In this document: positions 4,538 to 55,585 of the stretch, one piece after another | How the letters are laid out: each line of letters opens with the position of its first letter | Numbering within the stretch: the stretch's first letter is position 1 | NCBI GenBank assembly: GCA_964016885.1 | Contig: OZ024743.1 | Location: 38,688,001-38,752,000, forward strand | DNA from: Eledone cirrhosa | Lineage: Eukaryota | Direction of reading: 5' to 3' | Length of the DNA stretch: 64,000 nucleotides | Position numbers and translations under genes: made by a program | Notes under the pieces: model-generated | The model's input: the letters and a program-made list of their open reading frames with translations, nothing else | Told to the model about the DNA's origin: nothing | Database searches by the model: none

Positions 4538-4631
4538 ACCCCGACAGCTGAGCTCAAGCCGTTTCGACGGCTAATTCTGGACTAAATGAAAATTTATCCT
4601 GGTATTTAAATAGCCGATCTTCTCAAGGGGT
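4538..4631 (-). ncRNA. Type I hammerhead ribozyme with U3:A8 core (UUGAGAA) in the 3' pLTR
   Basis: Minus strand: ACCCC-TTGAGAA-GAtCGGCTA...TAGCCGTC-GAAA-CGGCT(tgagctc)AGCTG-TC-GGGGT. All three helices pair and the triplet is GUC. Confidence 0.85.
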
Positions 4632-5755
4632 TATTCCATATATGGTCAAAGTGATTGTCAAAAATCAGTAGTAATTCTGTGGTTGCAAATTAGTAGGGGA
4701 GATGGTGGCTAAACCTGCCAGTAGGAGAAAGAGGGGAGGGGGTGGAGTAGACCCAATCAGGCGTTTGTAGTGCCAGCTACAGCTGGGCATGAGGTCAAAG
4801 AAGATACAGGGGAGGGGGAGGAAGTCGGAACGGTAGGTAGAACAATGGGGGGTAGAAATATATAGGAAAGAAAAAATACTGAGAGTGAAGAAAAGCAAAT
4901 AAGTGTAAAGAAAAACAAATGAGTGTAAAGAAAAAAGTAAAGTAAATTAAATTCTACGACCTAGGTCTCTAGCTATTGTTAGGCTAGAATAAATAAATAA
5001 ATAAATAAAGAAAGAAAGAAGTAAAGAAAGAAATAAAGAAATAACGAAATAAGTAAAAGAACTAGGTGGGACGAAATAGGCGAGGACCCTTTTAAGAGGT
5101 ATAAGTACGTAAATGATACGGTGACGGGTCAACAAAAGGGGCCAAAATACTAAAGAGACTACCAGGAAATAAACAATAAAGGTTTCCATCCCGGGCACAA
5201 TTCCAGCAACCACCCAGTGCAGCAAAGTGAACTAATACGAGATAATAATTCTGAGTCCCGAGAAAAATATATACTAATGCTAACTCTAAAAGATCTAAAA
5301 CAAGCTACATGAAAGTTCGTACGAAGTAAAGGTAGAATACGGAAAAATAAATTCAGAATCCACCCCGCCCAAAAGAAAAGCGAAGAAAGAAATACTGAAA
5401 CGAAAAAATAAGGCATAAGTGTCACTAAGAAATATAGAGGGCACAGAGAATAGTGGGAGCGGTCGGAAAAAGGGGACAAGTATCCGGGGTCTAAACCAAC
5501 TGCTATAAAGGGCGGAGTCCGCCAAATCTATCCTAGACTAGGGGAGGGGGTGGGGGTACTAAGGCTACAAGGGGCCAAAGGGCAGCCTCGGGTGGGCGAG
5601 AAAAGACGCCGACAAAGGAGAAGAGCTGGGGTAGAAGGACTAAGGAGAGAGAGGGGAAGGAAGGAAATAAAGGAAGCGATAAAAGAATACAAAGAAGATC
5701 TTACGTCTCCCTTGGCAAGCAGGGGTTACCCATTGAAAAATCGGCAAGTGGGGTG

Positions 5756-7935
5756 TTATAGCCCTAGTCTACCCCCCCCCCCCCCCGGGTCATTATGGGG
5801 TTTGAGGGCGAGGGAAGTCCGACGCAATCTATGTTCACATGCAGTAACCAGTTCATCTTTCTTGTTTAGGAGTTGGTCCGTCGAAAACAGCATTTGTAAA
5901 GTTTCCTCCGAGCATAAATTGCACGGACGGCGTCCTCCCGTGTAAGAATTGGCTCCGGACAGTAATCTCCAAGTGAGATCATAGGTGATGTTATTGTCCT
6001 TGAGGTCCCATATGTGGCCAGAAAGTGTAGTGGCGTGACGCCGGGCCGGGTTTCGGAAGGTATGTCTATGTTGGTATAGCCGGGTCTTGAAGTCACATGC
6101 GGTAAGTCCTATATAGGCTTTGTTGGAGGTATCCGTCCTCACGTTGCACTGGTAGATCACATTACGGTCTCTGCATCTATTGTCGAGTGGGCAAATAGAT
6201 CTATCCGGGCAGTTACACCTCCTGGTCGGTTCTCCACTGCTATTTAGGTTATTTCTGCCATCGGGGTTGAGTTTTTTGTTGTTAGAGGAGACGATGTTTT
6301 GTGCGAAGTTTGGTTTAGTGCTGTAAGAGAGTTTGATGGTATTTTTGTTAATTATGTTGTGGTAGCGGTGTTGTAATGGGAAGTGTTTTTCAATGAGCCT
6401 AAAGAATAGTTTCCCGATGGGAGTTGTCACCTCTGCGTTGTGGGGAGGATTGAACCATGTTACATTGCGTGAGCAGCGGCGGTGTCTCCTGCTGGTTCCG
6501 CTAATGGGAGCTGGATAGTAGGATATTTCCTCCCGGAAACCACTCCGCTTGAGGGCCTGGTTGTAATAAGGCGCATGTTCATCGAATATCCGCTCATTCG
6601 CTGACAAACGGGATATGCGGAGGGAGATGTTTTTGACCAGGTTGTTTGTGATGTTCCTAGGATGGTTTGATCGGCGGTGGATGTAGTGCAGATTGTCATT
6701 AGGTTTCCTGTATGGGTAGTACAGGTCGTTTTCGAGGTCGAGGGTCATGTCCAGGAAGTTTACTCTGGTCAGGGACGTTTGTAGGGTTATTTTAAATCCC
6801 CAGTCTCGGAAGAATCTGATTAATTGTTTCTGGACCCGATCTGTACTACTGGGGTTGTACCCTTTAAGGGTTAGGAGCCCATCATCACGGTACAATCCAC
6901 CACCGAATGCAGGAAACATATCAGTGAGTTTGGCTATTAGGAATAATCCTATAAGATCTGTGACCTCCGCCGAATCCGTGGCGCCCATGCTGATGTCGAA
7001 GGGTGAGTCGGGAGCTCTTTTTATCCACTTAGAGTCGTCAAAGAGAAAGACTGTCTTCCTGGCGTGGAGGATGATTTTTCTTTCCTGGTCGGTGATGGGC
7101 ACAAGTGTTTTCGGCGAAGTCCAAGGCGGCAGTAAGTAGCGGTAAGGTGATTGAAGCATAGTAGCTCTCTATGTCGAACTGTATGAATTTAGTTTCTCGT
7201 TTATCCTCCATATTGCTGAACCAGGAGCTTACTTCCTGGGTGTTGATCCATAGGCTTAAGTCGGGTGTGTTGCTTGACTTTTGGTATCACGCGGTCTAGG
7301 ATTTTTTTGCTGATTCTCCCTATGTCGGACTTCGTTGGGTTAATAAGCCTGATAGAGGGTTTACGGTCAAAATCGGGTTTATGGTCCTTCAGTGTGAAGT
7401 ATGGTGTCCGTGGGTCTAGAGGTTCCGTGCGGTCGGCGACCCCGAGGCTGGAGGTGATTTGTTGTCCATCTCGATTTATGTCCTCGATGCAAGAGTGGTT
7501 GGCCTTTTTATAGGTAGAGTTTAGGCTGCTCCTGATCAGTGTGTGGTATCTGTCAGGGTTGACAAAGTATAGGTTCCCAGTTTTATCCGAATGCACCATG
7601 ATGTCATTTGTGTTATCATACACTGTTAGGTTGCTACGGAGTTTTTGTAGGAATCGGTTGTGTCTGGGTTTAAATTTAATGTTCTTGACCAGTTGGAAGA
7701 GGTCATTCTCGAAGGGTGCGAACAAGGGGTTCAGGGGCGGAGATTTGTAGGTAATAAATCCGAATCTCTCCTTGGTGCCGAAGTCTTGGTTGTCGCAATA
7801 TCTGTCATAGAAAAAAGTTCTCCATCTAAGTCTTTTCGCAAATAGATCGATTTTTTGCGTGAGCATCCGAAGGTAAAGTTTTTTCGGTGGGATTGGGATG
7901 TACTTGGTAGAGAAGTCAATGTTGTGTTTTCGCAT
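5756..7935 (-). pseudogene. PLE reverse transcriptase plus GIY-YIG endonuclease, interrupted by two frameshifts (near 7255 and 7112)
   Basis: Starts MRKHNIDFSTK. Motifs seen: SDKTGN, FDIESYYASI (intermediate frame, my translation), ISMGATDSAEV, LYRDDG, NFLDMTL, linker CNCx5C, VIY..YIG..FKTRLYQH, and CNLC..ELVTACEH. The CxCx5C linker and C-terminal CxxC..CxH match Naiad-clade PLEs. Confidence 0.92.
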
Positions 7936-8445
7936 GGTGCGGGTGAAATGAATTGAGCTTAGCGTAAAAGTCTGGATACGGCGTGGTAGGGTCGGAAAGT
8001 GCTCTACTACGGGGGTAGGAGCTAGATAGCAAAGGAAATGTGGTAAGGAACCAGGTGGACCATAACGCACCAAAGTACTCAATACTTGAGGTAGTAGAGT
8101 GGGTAATAGGAACCAGTAAGACCCCGACAGCTGAGCTCAAGCCGTTTCGACGGCTAATTCTGGACTAAATGAAAATTTATCCTGGTATTTAAATAGCCGA
8201 TCTTCTCGGCTATTTATATATATGTCTATATATATATATATATATATATATATATATATATATATATATATATATATATATATATATATATATATATATC
8301 TGTATATACATACATATATATATATATACATATATATATATGTATATATATATATATGTATATATATATATATATATATATATATATATATATATATATA
8401 TATATATATATATATATATATACATATATATATATATATATATAT

Positions 8446-8812
8446 TAGAAAGTGAGGTTTTTTTTACAAAATGAAAAATAACCGAGGTGTCCTACACGAG
8501 TGGAAGTATAAAGAAAAAGGGATGAAATCGAAAATGCAACTGAAGTCTTATTTTTTTTAAAAATATATATATTTATTTGGTTCCTTTACTGGTTTCGCAG
8601 TTCTTCTGCTTTTCAAAAGGTGAGTTGAGATGGAGGGTCTGTGGTTTTTCTCACATCTGAGGAATGTGAGAAAAACCACAGACCCTCCATCTCAACTCAC
8701 CTTTTGAAAAGCAGAAGAACTGCGAAACCGGTAAAGGAACCAAATAAATATATATATTTTTTAAAAAAATAAGACTTCAGTTGCATTTTCGATTTCATCC
8801 CTTTTTCTTTAT
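8446..8812. mobile_element. Foldback solo pLTR pair of a PLE (about 150-bp arms at 8507-8656 and 8664-8812, plus a tail)
   Basis: Near-perfect inverted repeat with a 7-nt spacer. The same family occurs at 35100-36858 and 54895-55265. Confidence 0.85.
8700..8737 (+). ncRNA. Compact hammerhead ribozyme with U3:A8 core (UUGAAAA); mirror copy at 8583-8620 on the minus strand
   Basis: CCTT-TTGAAAA-GCAG(aagaa)CTGC-GAAA-CCGG-TA-AAGG. Confidence 0.85.
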
Positions 8813-54394: not shown

Positions 54395-54894
54395 TTCCCT
54401 TGCTTTTATCGAGAATCTAATTGTAATACGTGACGTATTCTATTCTATGGCGATTAGGTCTTCAAAATGTTTATTATAAACATACAGAATATTTTCGAAT
54501 ATTCTATGTCTATATTCACATATATATATATATATATATATATGTGTGTATGTATGCTTTTGTGTGTATGTGTGTGTGTTTGCATGTGTGGTTTTATTTT
54601 ATTTTTCCTTTCCTTCTTCTTTCTCCAGCCTCACTTTCATATAGATTGCATTGTTGTTTTTAGAATCCAAATTCAATAAACAGACCAGGATTGTTTCTTT
54701 CTGAGGATTCAAAGCAAATTATTTGCTTTTAAGAAACCACTGGTAAATGGAATAATTGCCTTCATGTTGTTTATTATATAACTATTAAGCTCTGTTACCT
54801 ACATAGAGCACTATTTTTTCCTGGACTTTTCCGACGGAATTACTTCACCTATATATATATATATATATATATATATATATATATATATATATAT

Positions 54895-55265
54895 AGAAAT
54901 TGAGGGGAGGGTTCTTTTACAAAATGAAAAATAACCGGTGTCCTACACGAGTGGAAGTATAAGGAAAAACGATGAAATCGGAAATGCAATTGTAGTCTTT
55001 TTTTAAAAAATAAAATATGATTTTGGGGTTCCTTTACTGGTTTCGCTGTTCTTCTACTTTTCAAAAGTAGAGTTGAGATGGAGGGTCTGTGGTTTTTCTC
55101 ACATCTATGAGTAAAAAATGTGAGAAAAACCACAGACCCTCCAACTCAACTCTACTTTTGAAAAGCAGAACAACAGCGAAACAGACAAAGGAACCAAATA
55201 AATATATATATATTTAAAAAAAAAAGACTCCAGTTGCATTTTCGCTTTCATATTTGTTCCTTATA
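54895..55265. mobile_element. Foldback pLTR pair of the same family as 8446-8812, with decayed TTGAAAA hammerheads (55031-55068 minus, 55154-55191 plus)
   Basis: Inverted arms centred near 55110; sequence homology to 8446-8812. Confidence 0.85.
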
Positions 55266-55450
55266 TTTATATATATATATATATATATATATATATATAT
55301 ATATATATAACCGTCTGCTTGAGTTCTTAATTCAATTTGTGTACGGAACTTATTCCATTGCTCATAATTTGAATTTGACCGCCATAAACAGAGGTTAGCT
55401 GCCTTTAGAGTCATATGTGCTCTCACAACCGGACTGGTGTCAGAACAAAA

Positions 55451-55585
55451 GCCTGTTGACAAAGTAAATCCACTGTTCGATCTTCCAGAAACTTAACATG
55501 CATACACTGCAAACGGACTTTGTTGATTTACAGATTTACAGAAACCTAACTGAGATATCACAAAATATCGAAGTGATGGCCAGGT
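55451..55585 (+). ncRNA. Extended U3:A8 hammerhead (UUGACAA) with a damaged cleavage site
   Basis: GCCTG-TTGACAA-a-GTAAATC..GATTTAC-a-GAAA-CC..GG-C-CAGGT. The U of GUC appears deleted. Confidence 0.6.

Follow-up and report, generated by a model that had tools for sequence, protein, structure and literature searches.

A 64-kb stretch of the Eledone cirrhosa genome (contig OZ024743.1, positions 38,688,001 to 38,752,000; hereafter the window, in whose numbering positions are given unless a locus is named) contains hammerhead ribozyme motifs in which the core pair between positions 3 and 8, canonically C-G within CUGANGA, reads U-A (UUGANAA). Related copies are amplified across the genome with only four 3-8 combinations, namely C-G, U-A, U·G, and C·A, that is, with a pyrimidine at position 3 and a purine at position 8. 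The account that probably explains these observations best as one whole is that the motifs are cleaving U3-A8 hammerheads with a loosely selected 3-8 pair. They represent type I hammerhead folds in the 3′ repeat of Penelope-like elements (PLEs) of Hydra-clade and Neptune-like types, and in a superfamily of non-coding tandem and solo repeats.

Four such cores had been listed in an earlier note on the window, and each was recovered as an exact 7-mer match at the same coordinates and on the same strand (sites 1 to 4, the window copies of families A, B, C, and D, respectively). A hammerhead descriptor in which positions 3, 7, and 8 were left free retrieved 15 sites from the window, including sites 1–3, versus none from the reversed window and three from 50 Markov-shuffled windows (U3-A8 in none), and the motifs are therefore beyond chance. 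The minimum-energy fold of all four sites is a three-way junction with a single-stranded core, open in helix I as in type I hammerheads. Sites 1–3 and the family D relatives of site 4 carry U4, G5, A6, A9, G12, A13, A14, A15.1-U16.1, and an H17 cleavage site, and all core positions other than 3 and 8 are canonical in each family majority. A Watson-Crick 3-8 pair is present in the family majorities and absent from 1,888 C3·A8 and 1,119 U3·G8 copies. Family copy counts are genome-wide sequence-pattern matches, for which reversed-pattern controls in family B gave 0.

A census of 800 kb of evenly spaced stretches from the 3.0-Gb, (TA)n-rich genome identified 61 intact hammerheads, comprising 50 with C3-G8 (19 of them in one array), 8 with U3-A8, 1 with C3·A8, and 2 likely spurious ones with A3·C8. 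The four control sets (reversed and three Markov) gave 0 matches. The U3-A8 share is thus 8/61, or 8/43 if the array is counted once. Genome-wide, U3-A8 accounts for approximately 21,000 pattern matches and is the majority state in at least four lineages; the large class hidden from CUGANGA searches that the earlier note proposed is supported, as a minority of the intact hammerheads. Among lineages grouped by hand, the majority state was C3-G8 in 12 and U3-A8 in 4, with none mixed (Fisher p = 0.00055). In the comparison with Rfam hammerhead models (clan CL00010) that the note had suggested, none of the four sites matched at E ≤ 10. Two of four canonical-core controls matched HH9, under the gathering score, and the best 150 of 593 matches in a whole-window Rfam scan were microsatellite or hairpin artefacts with no hammerhead among them.

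Site 1 represents family A, whose members are about 3.6 kb long. Its features in the window are as follows:

4538..4631, minus strand: type I hammerhead with core UUGAGAA at 4626-4620, helix I ACCCC/GGGGU, a bulged helix II, GAAAC, and an extended helix III with a palindromic loop, UGAGCUCA
4449..8207, minus strand: putative Hydra-clade PLE in (TA)n
8032-8207, minus strand: 5′ repeat of this element, cut within the hammerhead core
56647..57271, inverted pairs: 3′ ends cut within loop II, i.e., half-hammerheads without the core
32818-32864 and 50926-50981: further core-less 3′ ends

The predicted cut of the site 1 hammerhead follows C17 at position 4543. The window element encodes reverse transcriptase (RT) and, at the C terminus, a GIY-YIG endonuclease in an open reading frame (ORF) with a frameshift near 7200, followed by the 3′ untranslated region (UTR) and the hammerhead-bearing 3′ repeat. 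Unbroken or nearly full ORFs are present at loci L190, L196, L193, and L187, and where the ORF is unbroken the hammerhead lies on its strand, approximately 1.1–1.2 kb beyond the stop. The order RT to GIY-YIG without CCHH, the (TA)n targets, and the RWK-like, DKT, CxCX5C, CxxC, and CxH marks (in L190, RWR104, DKT184, CNCPDRSIC639, YIG673, CNLC737, and CKH765) characterize the Hydra clade, to which family A is assigned on its sequence. The site had previously been linked to Naiads, which carry an N-terminal GIY-YIG, a CxC linker, and DKA; this link is not supported, the family A endonuclease being C-terminal and the motif DKT.

The family A core pattern has 7,571 genome matches, with A8 in 7,490 and another base in 81, and C3·A8 occurs in 1,888 (25%). 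A stricter, longer pattern found C3-G8 in 7 copies. Position 7 is occupied by each of the four bases among the first 100 matches listed, so that the proposed freedom of this position is borne out within one family. The further statement that only position 7 varies is true of the four window copies and not within families, given the 25% of C3 here and the 40% of G8 in the families of sites 3 and 4. An older sister subfamily, with U3-A8 in about 89 of the 100 listed of its 127 matches, differs from family A by a compensatory helix II pair change. CUGAGAA might also be read as having lost position 7 and kept G8; with A8 fixed and any of the four bases allowed at position 7, this reading was discarded.

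The 5′ truncations of family A cluster sharply inside loop II genome-wide (for example at window 56647-56837, L129, L135, and L213), and the truncated ends often form inverted pairs, head to head. Ahead of (TA)n, the ends terminate at two fixed sites separated by about 80 nt, resembling the two reverse-transcription starts described for an anole PLE (PMC11167929).

Site 2 belongs to family B, for which the window contains these features:

8700..8741, plus strand: minimal hammerhead with core UUGAAAA at 8704-8710 and helix II GCAG/CUGC
8579..8620, minus strand: inverted mate with UUGAAAA and helix III ACCAGU
35103..36850, minus strand: 5′-truncated, putatively Neptune-like PLE with a GIY-YIG/CCHH endonuclease end at 36347-36640, then the 3′ UTR
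35184-35225, minus strand: mutated hammerhead of this PLE, UUGAAGA
36746-36787, plus strand: inverted 5′ piece of this PLE with a CUGAAAA copy
54907..55251: older head-to-head pair (55027-55068 minus, 55154-55195 plus), both UUGAAAA, with decayed helices

The hammerhead at 8700..8741 has a palindromic ACCGGU helix III and a predicted cut after A17 at position 8733, and forms with its mate a head-to-head truncated pair (~8454-8808). Two family B copies co-fold through the palindrome, as dimeric minimal hammerheads would. From the endonuclease fragment at 36347-36640, family B open frames of 653–791 amino acids were traced, with Pfam RVT_1 and GIY-YIG matches. At four loci, the hammerhead lies on the ORF strand, 1.1–1.4 kb beyond the stop. 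The Neptune-clade marks, namely GxKF, DKG, a CX2-5CxxC linker, and GIY-YIG with CCHH at the C terminus, are present (GLKF65, DKG171, CGRSNCGTC661, CKGC705, YIG712, and two His), and family B accordingly appears to be a Neptune-like PLE, in agreement with the suggested link to a CCHH-type GIY-YIG element. Core counts are 12,914 exact U3-A8 versus 59 C3, and 13,747 A8 versus 29 G8; the U3-A8 pair thus seems fixed, and the C3 and G8 exceptions look like decay.

Family B copies frequently take the form of short, perfect palindromes whose halves meet about 40–50 nt upstream of the core, as at 8454-8808 and 54907-55251, and such copies mimic microRNA hairpins in Rfam. A tandem array with a ~9.6-kb period (L097-L102, ~2268-2828, plus strand) carries cystine-knot ORFs, presumably similar to interleukin 17, and a C3·A8 family B copy in each unit.

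Sites 3 and 4 lie in repeats of a different kind:

14771..16716, minus strand: family C tandem repeat, retrozyme-like, with a 616-bp unit in three or more copies that are 99% alike
15012-15147, 15628-15763, and 16244-16379, minus strand: family C hammerheads with core UUGAUAA
55312..55587, plus strand: family D solo element of ~300 bp in (TA)n, with a hammerhead at 55450-55587 and core UUGACAA

The family C cuts are predicted after 15017, 15633, and 16249, and the 616-bp tandem repeat occurs at many genomic loci. Site 4 had been taken for an intact ribozyme, but this copy lacks U16.1 (GG-C in place of GGUC) and is likely dead, judging from its sequence. Its relatives have U16.1 in 28 of 29, G7 in 29 of 29, and TTGAGAA in 26 of 29, and the C7 of site 4 is private. 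Sites 3 and 4 have in common helix II (GUAAA/UUUAC), flanking extra A's, and GAAACC; one pattern collects both, and helix I of the two families shows compensatory differences. They thus form one superfamily, and the window holds three lineages rather than the four families with different helices described before.

The C/D pattern has 2,832 genome matches, with U3 in 2,812; 8 of the 20 others are C3-G8. U3·G8 occurs in 1,119 of the 2,832 (40%), and by a strict test 16 of 17 U3·G8 copies in the C branch and 9 of 15 in the D branch are otherwise intact. The C-branch copies sit in 609-bp arrays, and between a young U3·G8 array type and a U3-A8 array type, G8 is the sole difference among the bases shown. 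Family E is a ~320-bp tandem repeat with a minimal U3-A8 hammerhead and a palindromic helix III (L134 9829, plus strand, and L305-L314). It has 457 exact matches, with A8 in 99 of the first 100 listed and U3 in 12 of 14 copies viewed. The single C3·A8 match of the census (L134) is an outlier of this family. As for the features that define retrozymes (dispersed non-coding units in tandem, one type I hammerhead in each), families C and E are tandem and dispersed, and D is mostly solo.

No subfamily amplified with C8, U8, A3, or G3 was found among the non-majority matches of family A and C/D, and strict 3-8 covariation breaks down within two lineages, through U3·G8 in C/D and C3·A8 in family A. 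In a rooted tree of the family A hammerhead region (78 ingroup and 13 outgroup sequences, with 26 of 104 rows dropped and the outgroup flank unalignable), the youngest U3-A8 clade (30 tips, ultrafast bootstrap [UFboot] 98) nests in a C3·A8 grade (67 tips, 99), and the outgroup is the U3-A8 older sister subfamily. The window element belongs to this youngest clade, at less than 1% from its majority. A second U3 clade (8 tips, 99) contains one C3 tip and also has C3 copies beside it. The C3·A8 copies have diagnostic flanking changes in common and group together coherently, at 2–3% from their own majority. The simplest reading of the tree is a path from U3-A8 to C3·A8 and back to U3-A8; with an outgroup subfamily of the U3-A8 type, C3·A8 as an ancestral step out of C3-G8 in family A was discarded. 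The C branch has U3·G8 at its base with U3-A8 nested inside (UFboot 91–100), and in the D branch a small C3-G8 clade (4 tips, 96) lies inside the U3·G8 group. Likenesses of families A and C also occur in contigs from other organisms' runs, where no position-3 variant reached 10%, the likeness being limited.

The hammerhead C3-G8 pair can be replaced by U-A in vitro (Perreault 2011, PMC3088659), and the U3-A8 motifs likely self-cleave after GUC or GUA. Family B may act as a dimer through its ACCGGU palindrome, while the longer helix III of families A, C, and D would permit action as a monomer. Following published work on PLEs and retrozymes, cleavage would free unit-length RNA from tandem or read-through transcripts. 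The 3-8 pair would be under real yet loose selection, and lineages would have moved among C-G, U-A, U·G, and C·A by single-base steps, regaining a Watson-Crick pair more than once. Residue 8 contributes its 2′-OH to catalysis, and U·G and protonated C·A+ wobbles have a common shape. The likely cause of the looseness is either that wobble-shaped pairs retain partial activity or that cleavage is helpful but dispensable for insertion; in an anole PLE, hammerhead-dead mutants insert unimpaired in vitro (PMC11167929). The thousands of copies with wobble or mismatch cores suggest that self-cutting is likely only loosely required.

Several points weigh against this account. The C3U/G8A rescue invoked in the earlier note agrees with the in vitro activity cited above but not with a saturation scan, in which only a G3:C8 swap rescued the 3-8 pair (Roberts 2023, PMC9901934), implying that even U3-A8 had low activity in that construct. 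A natural Schistosoma CUGANAA motif was inactive (PMC8490949). Folding z-scores of the four sites are weak to modest (0.15 to −1.60; −2.69 for an intact relative of site 4), and of 40 randomly sampled 3′ ends of family A, 36 lack the core. The C/D counts are inflated by tandem arrays, and an autonomous C/D partner was not found, tblastn of 101 upstream flanks giving scattered fragments only. A Nematis-like PLE ORF adjoining C/D copies was rejected as the partner, as (TA)n and a SINE-like repeat intervene or the ORF is on the opposite strand. The trees comprise 150–340 columns of related repeats at loci partly chosen by core state, and recombination among subfamilies could be mistaken for reversion. 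A C-run meets a T-run at position 3 of family A, where slippage may raise the rate of change. No C3·A8 master copy came to light, the five C3·A8 loci read at length (L183-186 and L195) being without a full ORF.

A bolder form of the account is tentative: the genome may document, in natural sequences, passage of the 3-8 pair between C-G and U-A by way of U3·G8 and C3·A8, both active enough for retrotransposition. Each of these states would be represented by about a thousand copies, C3·A8 perhaps functioning through protonated A8 or help from protein, and Watson-Crick pairs would have been restored several times in parallel.

The motifs could alternatively be hammerhead-derived but catalytically marginal, kept as a protein-bound structure or a start mark for reverse transcription, so that the 3-8 pair drifts. 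That would accommodate a C3·A8 lineage of ~1,900 copies, the spread of Naiads without canonical hammerheads, the poor cleavage of PLE minimal hammerheads in vitro, and the anole PLE, whose ribozyme cut only with protein (PMC11167929). Such drift is nevertheless unlikely given the otherwise canonical cores, the failure of C8, U8, A3, and G3 subfamilies to amplify, and the parallel return to Watson-Crick states. It is still less probable that U3-A8 is active and that C3·A8, and perhaps U3·G8, are dead passengers, carried by help in trans within palindrome heterodimers or produced by recombination or slippage. The palindromic loop III permits intermolecular pairing, and the lack of an unbroken ORF at the five C3·A8 loci and the inactive CUGANAA motif (PMC8490949) are in keeping with this idea; however, the C3·A8 copies are coherent with common diagnostic flanks, the U3·G8 arrays are young, lie at dispersed loci, and are intact apart from that pair, and the idea changes only the mechanism of the side states. 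Chance resemblance in AT-rich repeats, to which 48 TTGANAA occurrences in the window, weak z-scores, and the absence of Rfam matches might point, is refuted by the controls (61 census matches against 0), the position in the PLE 3′ repeat, the compensatory helices, and the C3-G8 members nested in the same superfamily. The preferred reading thus remains that of cleaving U3-A8 hammerheads with a loosely selected 3-8 pair.

The window and genome contain further elements. At 1816-3958 (plus strand), a retrozyme-like 469-bp tandem repeat carries canonical CUGAUGA type I hammerheads (cores at 2231, 2700, 3161, and 3630) and has a weak HH9 match. More canonical-core families are represented at 12375 and 12685 (minus), 54358 (plus), 28892 (plus), and 51848 (minus), of which several are mismatched (U·U) at 10.1-11.1, and the census holds at least 12 canonical families. 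Nematis-like PLEs have hammerhead-like 3′ UTR motifs with odd cores (L180 6380-6430, L181 5430-5480, and L189 455-2596, minus), one of which reads CCGAAGA, a U4C variant. The stretches 17994-23102 (minus), 23262-27622 (plus), and 30316-30945 (plus) contain, as labeled by eye, a two-ORF L1/Tx1-like LINE, fragments of CR1/L2-like RT and endonuclease, and another piece of a Hydra-type endonuclease. An ORF fragment at L040 2134-2829 (minus), which we take to resemble parvovirus/densovirus NS1 helicase, is probably an endogenous element.

CUGANGA descriptors and Rfam overlook roughly 13–19% of the intact hammerheads in the Eledone cirrhosa genome, among them a family of the Hydra clade, for which only canonical cores have been published. 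The amplified U3·G8 and C3·A8 lineages outweigh this annotation issue in importance. Since near-identical sister subfamilies differ at one core base, the tolerance at 3-8 and the need of PLEs for cleavage in transposition are directly testable.

The U3-A8 core in PLE hammerheads is already known, contrary to the novelty implied earlier, and the amplified U3·G8 and C3·A8 lineages are the new part. Cercyon PLEs of Schistosoma mansoni carry U3-A8 minimal hammerheads with ~1,300 matches (Cervera and De la Peña 2014, PMC4209133), and Fig. S3 in the supplement of that paper includes UUGAUAA and UUGAAAA rows and one Saccoglossus row with UUGAAGA (U3·G8). A C3·A8 row is absent from its accessible portions, as is any discussion of wobble or mismatch lineages. 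The Eledone families resemble Cercyon in the type I hammerhead within a PLE repeat, U3-A8, the palindromic helix III, and the close inverted pairs, and differ in host and PLE clades (Hydra and Neptune-like), the retrozyme-like superfamily, ~15-fold more copies, and long loops II and III. Covariation from C3-G8 to U3-A8 in several natural hammerheads, and tolerance of a 10.1-11.1 mismatch, were described by Perreault (2011, PMC3088659), the core variants in the available text being rare examples and not amplified U3·G8 or C3·A8 lineages. A literature search found neither amplified mismatch lineages nor these families, although they may have been described before.

Family A is similar to Hydra-clade PLEs including Hydra-1_Obim (Craig et al. 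2021, PMC8557442) in having RT followed by a C-terminal GIY-YIG, insertion in (TA)n, the RWK-like, DKT, CxCX5C, CxxC, and CxH marks, and a hammerhead near the 3′ end; the site 1 protein also resembles Hydra-1_Obim in a by-eye comparison with an excerpt. Several Hydra rows of that study show, as family A does, G10.1 and then a helix II with a bulge. In contrast, the Hydra rows in its File S2, including Hydra-1_oBim, all read CUGANGA, whereas family A has U3-A8 or C3·A8, and the Hydra-1_oBim hammerhead sequence is unlike that of family A. Families C, D, and E resemble animal non-LTR retrozymes, whose units are 170–400 nt (Cervera and De la Peña 2020, PMC7229834; Li et al. bioRxiv 10.64898/2026.07.22.740005), in that the repeats are non-coding, have a single type I hammerhead in each unit, and are scattered as monomers and arrays. 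Family C differs from these in its longer units (609–616 bp) and its U3-A8 or U3·G8 core, and is known here from genomic DNA.

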